From a bacterium (GTDB lineage: Bacteria; Zhuqueibacterota; Zhuqueibacteria; Residuimicrobiales; Krinioviventaceae): DNA of 64,000 nucleotides. The notes below the pieces were generated by a model that saw only the letters and a list, made by a program, of their open reading frames with translations, had not been told where the DNA came from and did not search any database. The position numbers were made by a program, and so were the translations under genes. This document shows positions 300 through 8,151 of this stretch, one piece after another (positions within the stretch are counted from its first letter, which is position 1; each line of letters starts with the position of its first letter). The stretch covers positions 3,136,001-3,200,000 of the forward strand of contig OY843751.1 in assembly GCA_963693055.1 (NCBI GenBank), in the 5' to 3' direction.

Positions 300-812
300 C
301 TATCTATTTATTTCTTTATATTCTTTTTCCGTCTTGAACAATTTAAATCCCCTTGCAATATAGTTTTCAAGAGCAGCTGGATGATCAAGATTACAGGTAT
401 GTAACCAAACACGTTTAGCGCCAGCATTCCAGGCACCTTGAATAGCCTGTGACAAGAAAATCCCCCCCAGTCCTTTACCTATAAACTGCTTTAACAATCC
501 AAAATAAACAATTTCAACATCTCCCCCATTTTGAAATTCCAGCTCAAAATAGCCTGCAGGTGTATTTTTATAATACCCAATCCAGGTTTCCAGTCCCTTG
601 CGTGTACCATATTGATGCCATTGTTCATTTGTCCATTCAAGCTTGTCTATCCAATCCCAATGGCTGCCAACAGCAATATAAAACATTTTATTTATTTCAG
701 GACATTCAACATCAATTTTTTTAGACCAAAAATCAGGATCAATTTGAGCTGAAGGAGAATATTCAATTTTATCTTTCATTTCAAGATAATAAACAGTCAT
801 TTCAACATTCAT
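300..812 (-). CDS. GNAT family N-acetyltransferase
   Basis: Acetyl-CoA motif 'FIGKGLGG' and 'RVWLHTCNLDHPAALENYIARGF'; start trimmed to ATG 812, directly after the upstream stop at 814. Confidence 0.85.
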   Translation of the reverse strand: MNVEMTVYYLEMKDKIEYSPSAQIDPDFWSKKIDVECPEINKMFYIAVGSHWDWIDKLEWTNEQWHQYGTRKGLETWIGYYKNTPAGYFELEFQNGGDVEIVYFGLLKQFIGKGLGGIFLSQAIQGAWNAGAKRVWLHTCNLDHPAALENYIARGFKLFKTEKEYKEINR

Positions 813-813
813 A

Positions 814-1620
814 TTAATCTTCCCAGTTGAAATAAACAGCAGTACCACGATCCATCTGTTGAAAAGACAATTCAAAACGATTACCGGTTCTGGGGGTCCA
901 CACATAAGACCAGTTGTCACAGATACCGGCCTGACAAATGGGTTGATTATCGTTCAAGATTTCAAGGCCAAAATAGAGTACATCCCCTTTATATTTTGAT
1001 ATATCGCAAACTGTATTAAAAACCGGTTTACCAAATTTCCATTCAATGACAGTAAAATCCAGTTCAATGTCCTCATCATCAAATAATCCTGACACAAGCG
1101 CACCATCAAGCTGTTCGAGCACATTCTTGTCAATAACATCATCTTTAAGAATCTTTGAATCAATACATCCCCCTCGCAAGATTGCATGATCAGGAAAGAC
1201 TTTTGAGGGTTTAAATTGCAACTTTTCCAGGCTCAAGATATCTTCATCATACAACATTTGTCCAAATAATTCTTGCACCAATACAGCAACCGGTTCAGGA
1301 GGAACAAAACTTTGAATATCAGAATGTATCACCGTAACATTGTCATATTTTTCAAGGCGTTTTTTAGCAATCTGATACATTTTTATATTTGTTTCTACAG
1401 CGTAAACTTGCTTTGCACCCAACTTTGACATATGCTCAGAAAGGATACCAAATCCACAGCCAGCCTCAACACAAACAGCATTTTCAATATATGCTTTATT
1501 TTGGGTCAACATTTCTAAATAAGCATTTGTACGATTTTCATCATCGTAAATACTTATAAATGCCAATAGATCATCAATTTTATTAAAACGATTTTCATCC
1601 AACTCGTTAATAATATCCAT
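814..1620 (-). CDS. SAM-dependent methyltransferase, protein-arginine methyltransferase (PRMT)-like
   Basis: 'DENRTNAY', motif I 'VEAGCGFGILS', post-I 'VYAVE', E-x8-E loop 'ELFGQMLYDE'. Confidence 0.75.
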   Translation of the reverse strand: MDIINELDENRFNKIDDLLAFISIYDDENRTNAYLEMLTQNKAYIENAVCVEAGCGFGILSEHMSKLGAKQVYAVETNIKMYQIAKKRLEKYDNVTVIHSDIQSFVPPEPVAVLVQELFGQMLYDEDILSLEKLQFKPSKVFPDHAILRGGCIDSKILKDDVIDKNVLEQLDGALVSGLFDDEDIELDFTVIEWKFGKPVFNTVCDISKYKGDVLYFGLEILNDNQPICQAGICDNWSYVWTPRTGNRFELSFQQMDRGTAVYFNWED

Positions 1621-1626
1621 AAATTA

Positions 1627-4389
1627 CTAGTTACCTTTATTTTTTGATGGAGTAAAAGTTTTACGTATTTCTAACTTTTTCTTTTTGACCGTAAAATCCA
1701 CTTTTTTCATTTTCTGGTCCATTGTTAATACAAATTCATGAAAAGGTTCATCCACAAATGTTCTCAAAGGTAACCATTTTTTATCAATTTTTACACGATA
1801 AAATCCAGGTACCAGGTCAGTAAATTTATAATATCCATTCGCATTCGTGAAAATTTCACGTAATAGTCCCATTTCATTTTCCAACATCACTCGAATTTGA
1901 TTTAACGGATCATCTTTGCCATTAAATTTGTGATTGTTATCCAAATCCAGAAAAACATTTCCCTCAATCAAACAAACCGATGTTAGAGGAATTTGTAAAT
2001 GAATTACAGAACCACGATTTATTGAAATAATTTTTTCATACTCTCCTTGAATTTGTAAATAAGCAGGCAAAGTTGAAACATCAATTTTGAATTCGTAATC
2101 ACCGGCATCAACCGGACTAAATTCAAACTCTCCATTTGAACTGGATATAACAGTTTCATCATTAAAATGCAATAAAAGCTGAGACAATCCAGGTTCGTCA
2201 GGCTCTCGAATTCCATTCTGATTTTTATCAATATAAATTTCACCCTGTAGGGTACCTTTGGTTTTAATAAATGGCACAGGTACATTGAATCTTGGCAATA
2301 TGGTTGATGTCATGGTAGCTGACAAACGCCACTCTCTTGTCAGCATGTCGAGTTCAGAAATAGAGTTACTTAACTCAAATCTTAGATTATAATTATTATT
2401 AAATGGATGTAATTGTAATCCTGTTCTTACACTTCCATAAGTAAGTTTGACTTTACTAAAAATCCCTTCATCATCTAAATACCCTAAATAGCCGGTAGTT
2501 AGTGAAAAACCAAATAAAAATCCTTTTATATTTGTATCAAAATCCAAAATATATTGATCTGTATTTTCATATTTTTTTTGTAAAGTAGATCTATATTCAA
2601 ATTTAAATCTGGACAGGTAATAAAACATATTCAAACCGGCAGAGTATCTTTGGGTATTCGAATACACAAGGGAATTCAACCTGTCTTCAAGACTCCTAAA
2701 ACCTAAAAAAGGAATAAATACGCCAATTTTTCTTTGTAATGCTATTTCAAAAGATTTCAAATCCGTATATTGCAGTTGCTCGGTTTTAACATCTTTGAAA
2801 TTAAAACTTGAACTTGTATCAAAAAGGTAGGGTATACGGAGAAATGTTCGTAATTTTATATCGGTAACATTTTCCAGAGAATCCGGGTATATTGAATTTA
2901 AATCTTTATTATAACGATGAATACTATTCCAGATATAAAACCTGCTGACAGGAGCATATCGGGATGTCAGTAAAGCACCATATGTGCCCCGGTCAGTTCC
3001 CTGAAAAGTATCGTCAGCCCAATGTAATGCTCCCGTTAGATAATACTTTTTATGATTTGTTTTAAATTGTACTTGAGCGGCTCCGCTGGTTGGCTTGTTT
3101 TCAGCTCTGCTTAACCCTGTATAGATGCTGATATTATGAGCACTGTTTCCCAGGATTGACGATGAAGTTATAAATGAAGCAGTATCTGCTTTAAAATATT
3201 CAGTTGATAATGAAATTTCATTTTTTTTAAATTTCAAACTAGAATAAAAAAATCTATCATCTTTGTATAATTTTTTCCCCTTGAACAAAATCACAGAATA
3301 GTCGTCTAATTTTAAATTCAAAAATCCTCCCCTGCTCAACTGTCCAAAAGTAAACAGATTACTGTATTGAGTAATGCTCAAGTCTGCAAGTAATGGATTT
3401 AATAATAAACTGGAATCTCCTAACCGAATTGTGCTATATTTGTTTTGTAAACCTAATTTATATCTATGCATATAGAATTCGGGTGTATCATTTGTTCTGG
3501 TTAGATTAGATTTTAAGGTAGATTCAAATAGAATTTGAGAGCGTCCCATCTTGATATTACCCGTTTCCAAATATATTTCAGTGTCAGGATAATATCCTTT
3601 TTGAATTCGGTTAAAAGAAAATCCCATATTTACTGGTAAATAAATTCCCAAAGATCGGTCCAATGCTTTTGGCGCCTGAATTAATTTAACAGGAATAGTT
3701 TGTATGATCCGTTCAGTATTCCAATTTGTACCGGTTTCTATTCGAATAGTGTATTGGTTTTGCAATTGTACATCAATGGGCGTCTCAAAATAAAGTTTAA
3801 TATGTTTTTGGGTAAATGGTTTCAAGATAAAACTTTTCTCAAGTTGAGGATTAAAATTCCAATGAGGAGGTAAAACAACATTGCAATTAACCGTATCTAA
3901 TACGTTACCGGTATTTTTAATGATAAAGGAAAGCGAATCTTTTGCTGCAGGAAACACAGATTTCCTTTTTTCAAGAAAACCAACTTTGATATTTCGTTTT
4001 GGCTTGATTGCGATTTGGGTTGCAGATGAATCGGTAAATCCATCAAATGAGGTAAATAATTTCAAATAATACTTTATATTTGCTTTAGTAGAATTTGGTA
4101 TATTGAGTGTTACCCTAACTCTTGCTTTAGACAGTGAAGGAATACTGTCAGGTGTTGAAAAAGTTATCAAATTCCATTCATCAGGTTTGATTATTTGAAA
4201 TTCAGGATATATTGTTTTTTCGGATGTATTGGTTATTATATAAGAAAAAAGTGGAAATTCACCGGGATTCACAGAGCGAGATTCGGAATGTCTGACGATC
4301 AATGACCTTGATGGATCTACAGAAACCGCAAAAGCATTAACTCCCAATAATACTAAAATTAACACAATAAACTGGTGTGAAATCTTCAT
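1627..4389 (-). CDS. Large exported usher-like outer-membrane protein (N-terminal Ig/NEW3-like repeats, central beta-barrel, two C-terminal SdrD-B-like domains)
   Basis: Signal peptide; two repeats with 'I.NT' and 'P..W' motifs; amphipathic aromatic-rich strands; 'GEIYIDKNQNGIREPDEPGL' and 'GNVFLDLDNNHKFNGKDDPL' SdrD-B Ca loops. Confidence 0.6.
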   Translation of the reverse strand: MKISHQFIVLILVLLGVNAFAVSVDPSRSLIVRHSESRSVNPGEFPLFSYIITNTSEKTIYPEFQIIKPDEWNLITFSTPDSIPSLSKARVRVTLNIPNSTKANIKYYLKLFTSFDGFTDSSATQIAIKPKRNIKVGFLEKRKSVFPAAKDSLSFIIKNTGNVLDTVNCNVVLPPHWNFNPQLEKSFILKPFTQKHIKLYFETPIDVQLQNQYTIRIETGTNWNTERIIQTIPVKLIQAPKALDRSLGIYLPVNMGFSFNRIQKGYYPDTEIYLETGNIKMGRSQILFESTLKSNLTRTNDTPEFYMHRYKLGLQNKYSTIRLGDSSLLLNPLLADLSITQYSNLFTFGQLSRGGFLNLKLDDYSVILFKGKKLYKDDRFFYSSLKFKKNEISLSTEYFKADTASFITSSSILGNSAHNISIYTGLSRAENKPTSGAAQVQFKTNHKKYYLTGALHWADDTFQGTDRGTYGALLTSRYAPVSRFYIWNSIHRYNKDLNSIYPDSLENVTDIKLRTFLRIPYLFDTSSSFNFKDVKTEQLQYTDLKSFEIALQRKIGVFIPFLGFRSLEDRLNSLVYSNTQRYSAGLNMFYYLSRFKFEYRSTLQKKYENTDQYILDFDTNIKGFLFGFSLTTGYLGYLDDEGIFSKVKLTYGSVRTGLQLHPFNNNYNLRFELSNSISELDMLTREWRLSATMTSTILPRFNVPVPFIKTKGTLQGEIYIDKNQNGIREPDEPGLSQLLLHFNDETVISSSNGEFEFSPVDAGDYEFKIDVSTLPAYLQIQGEYEKIISINRGSVIHLQIPLTSVCLIEGNVFLDLDNNHKFNGKDDPLNQIRVMLENEMGLLREIFTNANGYYKFTDLVPGFYRVKIDKKWLPLRTFVDEPFHEFVLTMDQKMKKVDFTVKKKKLEIRKTFTPSKNKGN

Positions 4390-4406
4390 AAAAATCAGCT
4401 CAGAAT

Positions 4407-4853
4407 TTACTGTTTTCGACTTTTTACTTCAATAACCAGATTCGTGCTGTATACAGAAGGTTTTGTATTCCAATCTACTAAAATTCGGAAATCAATTTTC
4501 ACTTTTTCATTTCCTATACCAGATTTTACTAAATTCTTTTGCAATTCAACAGCATGATAATCCTGACTTTGTGATAATTTCCATAACAAATCCTGATGTG
4601 GTTTTTCCAGTTCGACAGGATAAAACCAAGGTTGCTCAGTATATATATATAATTCCCAATAGGTTTCTTTTAAACTATTAATATTTACCAGAAAATCATC
4701 AACATTGGCATGTGTTTCAACATACCCCCTATCCAAATCAACAATTGTAGGAACAGGGATTTGTAAGGTTAAAAGGTTACATTGGATAATACCATCGAAC
4801 CCCCAAAGTACCAAAGGATAAAATAAAAGATAAATTATAAAAATCTTTTTCAT
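4407..4853 (-). CDS. Secreted minor pilin-like subunit
   Basis: Signal peptide; beta-rich; shares DxxRGY, WxLxIY and D(F/Y)R motifs with neighbour; C-terminal 'PSVYSTNLVIEV' strand. Confidence 0.55.
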   Translation of the reverse strand: MKKIFIIYLLFYPLVLWGFDGIIQCNLLTLQIPVPTIVDLDRGYVETHANVDDFLVNINSLKETYWELYIYTEQPWFYPVELEKPHQDLLWKLSQSQDYHAVELQKNLVKSGIGNEKVKIDFRILVDWNTKPSVYSTNLVIEVKSRKQ

Positions 4854-4861
4854 ATACAAAG

Positions 4862-5341
4862 CTAATTTAAAGGTTCAAGTCTTATTACAGGATCAAAAAT
4901 CCAATTACCGGCAGGTGTTGAGTTGACATCGATTTTCATTCGATAATCTAACATTATCTCCATATCATGCACACCTGCTTTTCCTGTATAGATAACCTGG
5001 GGTACCTGAGACATGCTGAAAAAATTATGATTGTTTGCACAAACACTAAAATCGGAAATGGGTTTAAAAATACCCTGGGTAGTGTATAGATTGGAACGTG
5101 TAGAATAGATGACCAATTGCCACTCAACATTACTGGAAATACGTATTGTTACAGCATCGGTGATCTCGTAATACCCTCTTTCATAATCAGAGAATGTCAT
5201 GTTAGGGAAACTTTTGGTATGTATTATTTGAAAATTTTGAAGCGGCGGAACATTAAAATATAGTGTAATATCTTCTGATTTTTGAGAGAATATTGAAGAG
5301 GTTAATAGCAAAAATAAAAAAGTTTTAAATCTACGGGACAT
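4862..5341 (-). CDS. Secreted minor pilin-like subunit
   Basis: Signal peptide from ATG 5341, overlapping the chaperone stop; 'ISSNVEWQLVI' and C-terminal 'DYRMKID..TPAGNWIFDPVIRL'. Confidence 0.55.
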   Translation of the reverse strand: MSRRFKTFLFLLLTSSIFSQKSEDITLYFNVPPLQNFQIIHTKSFPNMTFSDYERGYYEITDAVTIRISSNVEWQLVIYSTRSNLYTTQGIFKPISDFSVCANNHNFFSMSQVPQVIYTGKAGVHDMEIMLDYRMKIDVNSTPAGNWIFDPVIRLEPLN

Positions 5342-6131
5342 TAAAAAACGCCTCACCAGCAACAAGAAAATCACCTAAAAAATCTACTACAACAAGAGCT
5401 GAATAATCGCCTTTATCAAGATCAATAATATTATCAAATTTAATAGTTTTGTATTTATTTGGCAAACAATTAAAATTTTTATTTTCAATTGTTTTTACGG
5501 TTTCGCCCAACTCATTTCGAATATCCACATAACTATTACATTTTAAACGAGTATTGCCAATATTTTTAAACACAGATTTAACTTTTAATGAATCATTCAT
5601 CGAATTATATTCAGCGGTAACATTTGCAATTTCTCCATTGTTTTCTGAATTTTGGTCAATAGTTACATAAAACCAAATGTATGACCGAATATTCATATAT
5701 ATGGTATAAGAAGACTGCTCATTTTGGGTTTGAAAACCAATCTGTGGTTCTTCATCTGGTTCAACAACAATAACTCCATAATATGTACCAGACAAATTAG
5801 AATCAGGTATTGCCAGAGTAAATCGAACATTCTGAGATTGCATAGGGGTAACAGAAAAATTTTCTGGACTTAAAAAAATCCATTCCATGCAGCTTCTCTC
5901 AGTTTCACCAACATCGGTTATTTCTATCTGATCATCCTCTACAACCAAATCACTCAGAAAAACACGATATTTCATTGTAGAATCTGCCTGATTAAGCAAA
6001 GAAAATGATTGATTTATTGAATCACCAGGTGAAACATGAAAATCAAACGACATGGGAGCTATTTGCCAACTTTCTTGCGCAAAACAAACACTTGTGGTAA
6101 AAAATAATAAAAGAATAATTACTTTACGCAT
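5331..6131 (-). CDS. Periplasmic two-Ig-domain pilus chaperone-like protein (PapD/DUF916-like)
   Basis: Signal peptide; 'IAPMSFDFHVSPG', 'WIFLSPENFSVTPMQSQNVRFTLAIP', 'GTYYGVIVVE', 'FKNIGNTRL', 'GDYSALVVVDF'. Confidence 0.7.
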   Translation of the reverse strand: MRKVIILLLFFTTSVCFAQESWQIAPMSFDFHVSPGDSINQSFSLLNQADSTMKYRVFLSDLVVEDDQIEITDVGETERSCMEWIFLSPENFSVTPMQSQNVRFTLAIPDSNLSGTYYGVIVVEPDEEPQIGFQTQNEQSSYTIYMNIRSYIWFYVTIDQNSENNGEIANVTAEYNSMNDSLKVKSVFKNIGNTRLKCNSYVDIRNELGETVKTIENKNFNCLPNKYKTIKFDNIIDLDKGDYSALVVVDFLGDFLVAGEAFFNVP

Positions 6132-6166
6132 TTTTAAAATCGCCTAAATAATATTGAATATATATG

Positions 6167-6196
6167 AAAAAGCAGTTCCGCAAGCGGAACTGCTTT
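6167..6196 (-). terminator. Intrinsic terminator/attenuator after the major pilin-like gene
   Basis: GCAGTTCCGC-TT-GCGGAACTGC hairpin followed by TTTTT on the minus strand. Confidence 0.8.
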
Positions 6197-6222
6197 AAAT
6201 TTAAAATTGTAAAATATAAAAA

Positions 6223-6819
6223 TTAAGGAGCTTCGGTTGCTTCCCATACATTTAATGTAACCGTAACAGAGTAAGCACCTGCTACATCAACACCAGCTTC
6301 TAAATCAAATTGAATATCGCCGGCAAAATCATTTACCCATACACCCTGAGCATCACTTGAAGTTACACAAGCCTGACCACTTGATCCTAATTCAGTCATA
6401 GTCCCCATAGAATTAGACAAATCACCAAATGTAGTACCAGGATCAATTTGAAGTCTTAAACCAGATGCATTAGGACCATAATTGTCAGGATGTTTGTTTC
6501 CTGTATTTGGATAAGCAGCGGGTACTGTCCAAGCTGAACATAGTGCTTGTACTTCAGTATCATAGTTTGTAGTCAAATTACTAACAGTAAAATAATCAGC
6601 AATTGTATAATTAGCAGGTGAGCCAGGTGCACCAAAATCTCCCAGAGTAATGCTATTCCACTCGGCTACCCATGCAATGGGTGTCATAAATGAAACTGTA
6701 AAAGTTGTTAATCTTCCAATTGTTCCAGAACCGCCACCTGAAGATCCAGTACCTTCTTGACCAAATGACAATACTGCCATAGTTAAAATTAATAATAGAA
6801 CAAGTAGTGTTTTTTTCAT
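6223..6819 (-). CDS. Secreted major pilin-like subunit (WxL/SCPU-like single beta-sandwich)
   Basis: Signal peptide, strong AGGAG RBS, Gly/Ser linker then alternating strand 'TTFTVSFMTP', two Cys, C-terminal 'AGAYSVTVTLNV'. Confidence 0.6.
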   Translation of the reverse strand: MKKTLLVLLLILTMAVLSFGQEGTGSSGGGSGTIGRLTTFTVSFMTPIAWVAEWNSITLGDFGAPGSPANYTIADYFTVSNLTTNYDTEVQALCSAWTVPAAYPNTGNKHPDNYGPNASGLRLQIDPGTTFGDLSNSMGTMTELGSSGQACVTSSDAQGVWVNDFAGDIQFDLEAGVDVAGAYSVTVTLNVWEATEAP

Positions 6820-6904
6820 TAGAAAACTCCTTTTAAAAATGATTAGTTTGATTATTTACTTTTCACTCTACGTTTACATCACCTCCCAATCATCATCATT
6901 CAAA

Positions 6905-8014
6905 TTATTCAACTTTGGTCATTTTTTTAATCAAACTGGTACCATTTGCTTCAAGCTTGTAAAAATAGACACCGGAACTGATGCTGTTGGCATTATAATC
7001 AAGACCGTTCCAGTCAATACTATAATAACCTGCAGATTGGTTGGCATCTACCAAGGTAGCAATTTTCTTACCCAAAATATTAAATACTTGCAGGGATACA
7101 TGACTATCTATAGCCAATTCGTATCTTATTTTTGTACCTGGATTAAAGGGATTGGGGTAATTTTGCTGCAATACCATAGATGTAGGTGCTTTTGTGGTAA
7201 TCTGGGTACTGGCAATAACATTTGTTTCACCCTTTATTGTAACTTCCTGTACCTGATACCAATACGTTTTATCAATATCAATAAAAGTGTCAGTAAAAGA
7301 ATATTCTGCAGCAACAGTAGCGCTGCCTTTTGCAGGTAACAATGCAGATGTAATACATTGGTAATCACCATCAACAGCATCACTGCGGTAAATGTGGTAA
7401 CCCTGGGTTTCAATTTCAGATTCGGTACGCCAGTTGAGATCAACTTTGTCTTTATTATAATCTGCGGAAAAACTGGCCAATTGAACAGGTAAAGGAAAAT
7501 CTGTAAGAGAATTCACTGTTACAGTACCAGCGATATCAGTAACAAAATCACTACTCTCTATAACTTGTAATGGAGTTACTGCCTCTTTCGTAATCGTGCC
7601 CGTATTATCAGTTGGATTATAATTTATTGTTATCCTTGCAATCAATGTTGTTGCTCCACCAGAACCATCAATGGTAAGATATGGACTAGAGAATTTATCA
7701 TATGAAATCGATAATGTTTTTTCAGTACCACCAGAGGAAGTTAACGCTTGACTATAACCAGCAGCAACTGAAAAATATCTTGAAGAACCAACCGCACTAA
7801 TATATTGACTGGTTAGCGCTGCATTCATATGTAGTTTCAAATAAAATGCGGCAATCTCAGGTGTTTCTGCATTATCATCGGTAGTTGCATTGACATCAAA
7901 CACCAATTGACCTGAAGTATTACTGACAAAATCTACAGTAACATCAACAGCAGCCTGTAATGCGGAAAAACTAACAACCAGAATAACGAGAATTAATGGT
8001 AACAACCTTTTCAT
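6905..8014 (-). CDS. Secreted surface protein with T9SS type A/FlgD-Ig C-terminal sorting domain
   Basis: Signal peptide; 'PLPVQLASFSA', 'LNWRTESE', 'LQQNYPNPFNP', 'SSGVYFYKL...KKM'. Confidence 0.85.
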   Translation of the reverse strand: MKRLLPLILVILVVSFSALQAAVDVTVDFVSNTSGQLVFDVNATTDDNAETPEIAAFYLKLHMNAALTSQYISAVGSSRYFSVAAGYSQALTSSGGTEKTLSISYDKFSSPYLTIDGSGGATTLIARITINYNPTDNTGTITKEAVTPLQVIESSDFVTDIAGTVTVNSLTDFPLPVQLASFSADYNKDKVDLNWRTESEIETQGYHIYRSDAVDGDYQCITSALLPAKGSATVAAEYSFTDTFIDIDKTYWYQVQEVTIKGETNVIASTQITTKAPTSMVLQQNYPNPFNPGTKIRYELAIDSHVSLQVFNILGKKIATLVDANQSAGYYSIDWNGLDYNANSISSGVYFYKLEANGTSLIKKMTKVE

Positions 8015-8135
8015 ATAGTGCCCTCCTTAAAAAATTGTTTGTGATTTTTGGTACATTTAAAATTAATTTACACAATTAGGTATTAATATTATAAACCCCA
8101 TATTTCATTCAAAAATTCCATATTATTAATTAAAA

Positions 8136-8151
8136 AGCAATTACTATGCCA
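8136..8151 (-). promoter_or_regulatory. sigma54 (-24/-12) promoter
   Basis: Minus strand TGGCATAGTAATTGCT = TGGCA...TTGCW with exact GG-N10-GC spacing, about 120 nt upstream of the ATG at 8014. Confidence 0.75.

Follow-up and report, generated by a model that had tools for sequence, protein, structure and literature searches.

In classical chaperone–usher pili (FimD/FimC, PapC/PapD), a plug domain closes the idle usher pore (PMC11459180). The Elr/WxL pilus of Enterococcus faecalis relies on a chaperone, ElrE, shown to work by donor-strand complementation; 96.7% of the chaperones in WxL systems bear a membrane helix at the C-terminus, and a Pfam-based survey places WxL systems in Bacillota only, at least in its main text, to which the supplements may add (10.64898/2026.10.17.759780). 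Donor-strand exchange, from protomer n+4, also joins the subunits of the 8-nm fibres TLP-1a and TLP-1b, whose authors, as far as the text of their report goes, identified neither the source organism nor the machinery and have "usher" in the references only; they name UniProt A0A2M8AA21 as a match to the TLP-1 fold (PMC11494351). Here we analyze a six-gene operon in a 64,000-nucleotide stretch of DNA (hereafter the window; assembly GCA_963693055.1, contig OY843751.1, positions 3,136,001 to 3,200,000) from a bacterium of the Zhuqueibacterota, family Krinioviventaceae. An original prediction, made from the DNA letters alone, had proposed a class of donor-strand pili not yet characterized, assembled by a platform of divergent type, and the chaperone, pilin, and barrel evidence presented below supports it: the operon probably encodes a chaperone–usher-type pilus pathway of its own family, with a WxLIP-like chaperone, TLP-1-like pilins, and a predicted plug-less usher barrel.

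With the Elr/WxL pilus, as described in the main text of the survey (10.64898/2026.10.17.759780), the window system shares a chaperone homologous over both immunoglobulin-like (Ig) domains, small subunits that are secreted and bear an extension at the N-terminus, and, putatively, donor-strand chemistry, but its chaperone has no C-terminal anchor, its family's pilins lack WxL (none of 75), an outer-membrane barrel is present without sortase anchoring, and the hosts are diderms rather than Bacillota. In place of the monoderm host and sortase anchoring that characterize WxL/Elr systems, we find SprA and PorV genes in the genome and a barrel in the operon itself. With the classical chaperone–usher pathway (PMC11459180), the system shares the pilin–chaperone–usher operon logic, the barrel fold, two C-terminal beta-sandwiches, and a GD...RG segment, whereas no sequence homology is detectable, no plug is predicted, two NEW3-like Ig domains stand where PapC_N would be, and the chaperone belongs to the WxLIP family. 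The TLP-1 pilins (PMC11494351) resemble those of the window in family homology, a signal peptide, an N-terminal donor strand (predicted in the window pilins), and a G-x-Y last strand, but they are 236–237 aa long with n+4 donor geometry, while the window pilins are shorter and distant. Judged by sequence, the system belongs to neither chaperone–usher nor Elr/WxL pili and yet would work like both. No description of it was found in the literature searched, a search for which most subscription journals lay outside the scope.

A WxLIP-like chaperone in a six-gene operon

All six open reading frames (ORFs) are co-oriented on the minus strand, in the order P0001-P0002-P0003-P0004-P0005-P0006 (369, 198, 266, 159, 150, and 920 aa). 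By a hydropathy heuristic, all six proteins begin with a signal-peptide-like basic N-region and hydrophobic stretch (10-mer Kyte–Doolittle values of 2.3–3.6), and no internal 19-mer in any of them exceeds 1.76. The original prediction of six co-oriented genes with signal peptides therefore holds for ORFs, lengths, and order, with the signals resting on this heuristic.

The sequence of P0003 (5331..6131, minus strand), a soluble two-Ig protein, points to a WxLIP (DUF916/DUF3324)-like chaperone rather than a PapD- or Csu/SCPU-like one. Pfam places WxLIP_PGBD on P0003 below the cut-off (17.6 versus 27.3 bits) and gives no PapD-family PF00345 match. An exhaustive search returned 1941 relatives at E≤0.001 (clustered at 50% identity), and a profile, A4, was built from 108 of 150 listed relatives, of about 243–297 aa, leaving out 42 longer or shorter ones. 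This profile matched EfmWxLIP1 (9I25/9I1Y) at E 5.6e-12 over positions 33–269 of 270, that is, its full length. Among the 108 members, WxLIP_PGBD was found in 43, a weak PapD_N in four, and PF11797 in one, and none (0/108) has a C-terminal membrane anchor by hydropathy. The two-Ig chaperone-like protein of the original prediction is thus borne out by the full-length EfmWxLIP1 match. A filing as Csu/SCPU, one of the two known kinds that this prediction named beside WxL-DUF916, was rejected for want of a Pfam match, and the SCPU neighbor in the atlas has that family on 14% of its members. The next relevant match of A4 in the Protein Data Bank (PDB) was EcpB (E 0.019); this weak chaperone similarity and a weak C-domain similarity are shared with the E. 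coli common pilus (EcpA–E), while barrel or pilin homology to EcpA–E was not detected.

Since P0003 lies below the Pfam cut-off, a Pfam-based WxL screen would likely miss it. If our assignment is right, the WxL chaperone family extends beyond Bacillota, contrary to the survey as given in its main text (10.64898/2026.10.17.759780).

Variant arrangements also occur among the chaperone relatives. Double chaperones of 520–580 aa are common. At two loci, L018 (3476-11015) and L019, relatives of the chaperone, among them a double form of 541 aa, are found together with an ORF that looks secretin-like by eye and an OmpA-like ORF, and next to a response-regulator gene, an arrangement that is possibly a further export route. 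Judged by eye, the tails of the chaperones at L051 and L052 (Acetothermia, Fraserbacteria) are Asp-rich and dockerin-like, and those of the barrels PKD-like.

A predicted usher barrel without a plug

P0006 (1627..4389, minus strand) is the predicted usher-like outer-membrane assembly platform. Pfam finds SdrD_B twice in it. A PDB search with the single sequence gave no matches, and the single-sequence fold reached a predicted local distance difference test (pLDDT) score of 28.8. The AlphaFold2 model built with 97 sequences (pLDDT 80.7) has two Ig domains, a large barrel, and two C-terminal sandwiches, in keeping with the 920-aa barrel-like protein with N-terminal Ig repeats of the original prediction, and a transmembrane barrel, which that prediction called for, is modeled at residues ~252–701. 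Ranks 1–8 of a Foldseek search with this model are all FimD (best E 2.9e-16). In VIA comparisons with the Foldseek matches, FimD scored Z 18.7 (rmsd 4.3, 352 aligned residues) and PapC Z 18.4, and in a VIA search of 48,161 chains, the FimD and PapC pores ranked first, at Z 17.8 and 17.6. The whole-chain alignment lays model residues 248–902 onto FimD 136–833 (rmsd 11.9), keeping the order of barrel and two C-terminal domains (CTDs). At the level of sequence, the family falls into no characterized usher clade, with no usher/PapC Pfam match (PF00577, PapC_N, PapC_C) in any of the seven members scanned and no homology found to FimD or EcpC barrels.

The two N-terminal Ig domains (NEW3-like; residues 28–238, 3676..4308) match the sialidase Ig domain 1EUT (VIA Z 13.0, rmsd 1.9), and NPCBM_assoc is found in three of seven members. 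At the opposite end, two prealbumin-like domains (SdrD-B/CarboxypepD_reg; 1672..2262) were located by Pfam and VIA at the CTD1/CTD2 position. It had been proposed that two calcium-binding SdrD-B domains replace the PapC N- and C-domains; the two SdrD_B matches stand, but because the pair aligns at the position of FimD CTD1/CTD2, it is more likely a counterpart of these domains than a replacement. Only 11 of the 97 members of the barrel family have two DxN/DxxG loops, and calcium binding as a defining trait was rejected in favor of a subfamily trait.

Between these parts lies the barrel (2287..3636), in which the model and the alignment of 97 members reveal no plug-sized insertion. A conserved GD...RG segment (residues 324–354, 3328..3420) is the likely counterpart of the LGD...RG motif, which we found in the FimD sequence; its conservation is 94/97 and 91/97 for G and D and 69/97 and 95/97 for R and G. 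The FimD plug follows the RG strand of this motif. In P0006, a turn of two residues (pLDDT >89) connects the next two strands. The barrel spans 383–471 residues across the 97 members (median 447) compared to 518 in FimD (139–656), and none of the 97 has an insertion of more than 50 residues in any barrel interval. The model and the alignment predict a barrel without a plug, the feature in which its novelty would lie.

The alternative that survives best is that the locus belongs to a divergent but ordinary chaperone–usher clade, whose gated usher keeps its plug in a poorly modeled region. FimD and PapC are, after all, the best structural matches, with the barrel-CTD-CTD order aligned and the GD...RG motif in common, and pLDDT falls below 50 at residues 520–532, 552–573, and 610–649. 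We nevertheless consider this unlikely given the shorter span, the lack of large insertions, the confidently modeled turn after the RG motif, the WxLIP-like chaperone, and the absence of usher Pfam domains. Under our preferred reading, a plug-less usher would raise the question of what seals so large a pilus pore and what activates it, the FimD/PapC model having plug displacement at its heart.

Some related loci (L187, L189, L190, L193, L194, L196, and L202) have an extra ORF of 243–286 aa 3′ of the barrel gene that matches both the barrel and the chaperone profiles, a hint that the N-terminal Ig domains of the barrel protein may be chaperone-derived.

Putative pilin paralogs and their indirect link to the TLP-1 fiber

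Three genes encode putative pilins: P0002 (6223..6819), likely the major pilin, whose N-terminal extension is the predicted donor strand; P0004 (4862..5341), a minor pilin that also has an extension and is likely an adaptor; and P0005 (4407..4859), a minor pilin without one that is likely the tip or initiator, all on the minus strand. P0005 has 150 aa when read from a TTG and 148 aa from the ATG two codons further in. As anticipated, the two subunits of 150–160 aa, P0004 and P0005, are paralogous (E 1.2e-5). An iterative hidden Markov model (HMM) search seeded with P0002 recruits P0004 (E 4e-6) and then P0005, so the three form one family, in which P0002 is by sequence a third paralog of the small subunits. 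None of the three has a Pfam match, and none has a sorting domain.

Past the signal peptide, the extension measures 25 residues in P0002, 19 in P0004, and seven in P0005, the extension-less class. Over 59 loci, 30 encode both classes, 28 the extension class only, none the extension-less class only, and one neither; an extension-less pilin is never found alone, as expected of a cap. In classical chaperone–usher pili, the tip subunits FimH and PapG are extension-less, and P0005 may be likened to them.

The profile of window-type pilins, A7, had two PDB matches at E≤10, 9IKK (E 0.083) and 9IKJ (E 0.15), the entries for TLP-1b and TLP-1a, respectively. A pilin from a Bacteroidota locus, L242, matches TLP-1 as a single sequence (E 7e-9), and a profile of 35 sequences, A8 (33 of the 77 homologs of this pilin plus two L242 pilins), matches TLP-1a and TLP-1b end to end at E 3.6e-23 and 1.6e-22. 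HHalign joins A7 to A8 at 97.8% over 147 columns, and by way of A8 window-type pilins are homologous to TLP-1a/b. This homology speaks, indirectly, for the incomplete Ig fold that the original prediction expected of the subunits. The A8 seed pilin at L242 adjoins a chaperone 26% identical to P0003 (E 1e-24), and a 975-aa barrel protein at that locus aligns with the barrel family profile A6 (99.4%, 811 columns). These sequence links make it likely that the subunit family includes the TLP-1 fiber and that the gene set is the machine making such fibers. If so, the TLP-1 fiber of unidentified source gains a genetic home as well as cultivable test organisms (relatives named Roseivirga).

The WxL Pfam domain PF13731 was found in 0 of 75 window-family pilins and 0 of the 35 A8 sequences, and a terminal WxL motif in 0 of the 75; an atlas neighbor (WxL 0.92) and the name that UniRef gives to two A8-type relatives are leads only. 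At L179 and L180, five to seven tandem pilin paralogs lie upstream of the chaperone.

Distribution and synteny of the gene set

Word-index homolog searches recovered only the query sequences. Of the 361 places confirmed in a genome scan, the best 79 loci underlie the counts that follow; they are related and so do not represent independent events. These loci span Bacteroidota, Ignavibacteria, Rhodothermia, Zixibacteria, Acetothermia, Planctomycetota, Deltaproteobacteria, Gemmatimonadota, Verrucomicrobia, Spirochaetes, Armatimonadota, and others, with Ca. Thiodiazotropha among the carriers. Pilin genes accompany the chaperone in 75 of the 79 and a barrel gene in 71; at loci with >3.5 kb downstream, the barrel gene is next to the chaperone without exception (59/59), which answers the synteny survey that had been suggested as a check. 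This co-occurrence of chaperone, pilin, and barrel genes, like their order, export signals, and family links, is read from sequences or searches.

In the window's own phylum (167 genomes), the barrel profile matches 37 genomes and the chaperone profile 47. The locus is patchy, as a congener (G001) has neither chaperone nor barrel. The closest six-gene ortholog, L159 (genome G062), has the identical gene order including the sorting-domain gene. No classical usher was found in the window's genome or in five further carrier genomes. Because the family is large (the 1941 clusters noted above) and invisible to usher Pfam models, pili of environmental diderms are likely under-counted.

In genome G253, pilins and chaperone are scattered (L249, L250, L266) and a barrel homolog lies 1.4 Mb off; an usher-less locus there was considered and rejected on account of this 947-aa homolog (E 2.7e-19). 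L165 (G078:C29) has the pilin–chaperone–barrel block twice in tandem with equal scores, either a true duplication or an assembly artefact.

Proposed pathway and its standing

By analogy with chaperone–usher and Elr pili, all parts would cross the inner membrane by Sec, and the chaperone would donate its own strand to complete the Ig fold of each pilin. Chaperone–pilin complexes may then dock on the periplasmic Ig and prealbumin-like domains of the barrel protein, with the extension-less P0005 arriving first and so capping the tip, P0004 next, and P0002 forming the shaft, over-produced thanks to a hairpin 3′ of its gene. The predicted plug-less barrel would polymerize these pilins by donor-strand exchange, and candidate gates for closing the idle pore are one of the N-terminal Ig domains, the loop with GD...RG, and a resident pilin.

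Several observations weigh against this reading. In Z, FimD and PapC lead barrels of unrelated type by little (OpdO 17.2, OpdQ 16.7), although these align ~285 residues at rmsd ~6, about 70 residues fewer than FimD. Sequence comparison established no relationship with FimD (1.5%) or with EcpC (17.6%, and this over the C-domain only). The model has 22 strands, as against the 24 of the FimD type, but confidence is low at 520–650, so that the strand number is provisional and a small plug may lie within this region. The window pilins have no significant direct match to TLP-1, to which they are linked by way of two profiles, and what is seen of the genes around TLP-1-like pilins comes from one genus (G305, G800) and a distant case (G253); searches for more such loci gave 2/401, 2/251, and 1/401 genomes, the last being the match of A8 in one of 401 sampled Bacteroidota genomes. 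Among metagenome loci, the barrel is next to the chaperone in 13 of 16 evaluable cases and missing in three, and no usher-like barrel is in view beside the chaperones of L018 and L019, where such chaperones are paired with other genes. Finally, fibers at these loci are predicted from genes.

A rival reading has no fiber: small Ig proteins would sit on a porin-like barrel as a short surface complex or uptake system. Occ/Opd porins do score Z 16–17 against the P0006 barrel, the barrels matched in the atlas search were only unnamed or PEP-CTERM-associated, and WxL clusters were long taken for static platforms, as the main text of the survey recounts (10.64898/2026.10.17.759780). Against it stand the homology of the subunit family to the solved long fiber TLP-1, the split of the subunits into an extension-bearing and an extension-less class, the hairpin 3′ of the first subunit gene, and single loci with up to six or seven subunit paralogs, and we regard such a fiber-less complex as improbable.

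Beyond the pilus pathway itself, we lean slightly toward a broader view, in which diderms of many phyla would share a widespread third branch of pili built by donor strands: a WxL-type chaperone and a plug-less usher, gated in some other way, would make TLP-1 fibers with n+4 donor geometry, bridging WxL and chaperone–usher pili.

An accessory type IX cargo gene

P0001 (6905..8014, minus strand) comprises an N-domain, a middle domain, and a C-terminal sorting domain (Pfam Por_Secre_tail/FlgD_ig). The genome encodes 232 ORFs with such sorting domains, SprA, and PorV-like proteins (32 matches, 22 of them over the cut-off), FCB-type biology that fits the suggestion of a probable Fibrobacterota–Chlorobiota–Bacteroidota (FCB) group organism, and by its sequence P0001 is a type IX cargo. 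In a structure search, the N-domain had no match better than E 1.6, and it has no paralog in the genome. L159 has a full-length ortholog at the same position, 33% identical overall, in which the N-domain alone finds no match at E<0.001. The sorting domain matches 18 ORFs among the collected loci, self included. The presence of a sorting-domain protein was thus correctly foreseen, but a core role in the pilus was rejected: the gene is absent from most related loci and hence accessory. The likely route of P0001 out of the cell is type IX secretion, and its likely role that of an accessory, co-regulated adhesin.

That type IX secretion exports the fiber or parts of it, with the barrel only an anchor, is the least probable alternative, for although the first gene carries a sorting domain kept in L159 and the genome has SprA and PorV-like genes, the pilins lack sorting domains, that of P0001 matches few ORFs among the collected loci, and the system is present in Deltaproteobacteria, Acetothermia, Planctomycetota, and Ca. 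Thiodiazotropha, where to our knowledge type IX secretion is not expected.

Operon control and neighboring genes

A sigma54-type −24/−12 promoter-like motif, TGGCATAGTAATTGCT (TGGCAT-N5-TTGCT; 8136..8151, minus strand), lies 122 nt ahead of the first ATG of the operon. The predicted sigma54 promoter is weak by itself, with one match versus 0.23 expected and at least one match in 20 of 100 shuffles. RpoN is encoded in the genome, as are 19 ORFs with a GAFTGA motif, and the strict motif recurs upstream of related loci (11/100 on the sense and 6/100 on the antisense strand, versus 0.0004 per locus in shuffled sequence). RpoN and this recurrence give the motif weight, and transcription of the operon is likely sigma54-dependent. 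Among the 52 related loci that are 10 kb or longer, 13 have a gene for a GAFTGA-type activator. No sigma54 motif was found in the two stretches searched at L159, and a scan for sigma70 promoters gave no more than chance would (35 matches versus 34.7 expected).

The 12-bp hairpin 3′ of P0002 (6169..6196, minus strand) has a folding energy of −18.2 kcal/mol (z −3.49; equally stable in 1 of 200 shuffles), and L159 has a similar hairpin at the matching place 3′ of its first pilin gene. A terminator scan did not flag it; it is likely a step-down element giving an excess of the major pilin.

Downstream of the operon, a SAM-dependent methyltransferase gene (814-1620, minus strand) starts 6 bp past the barrel-gene stop and is followed by a GNAT acetyltransferase gene (300-920, minus strand); the two have no counterpart at that place in L159 and are possibly cotranscribed with the operon.

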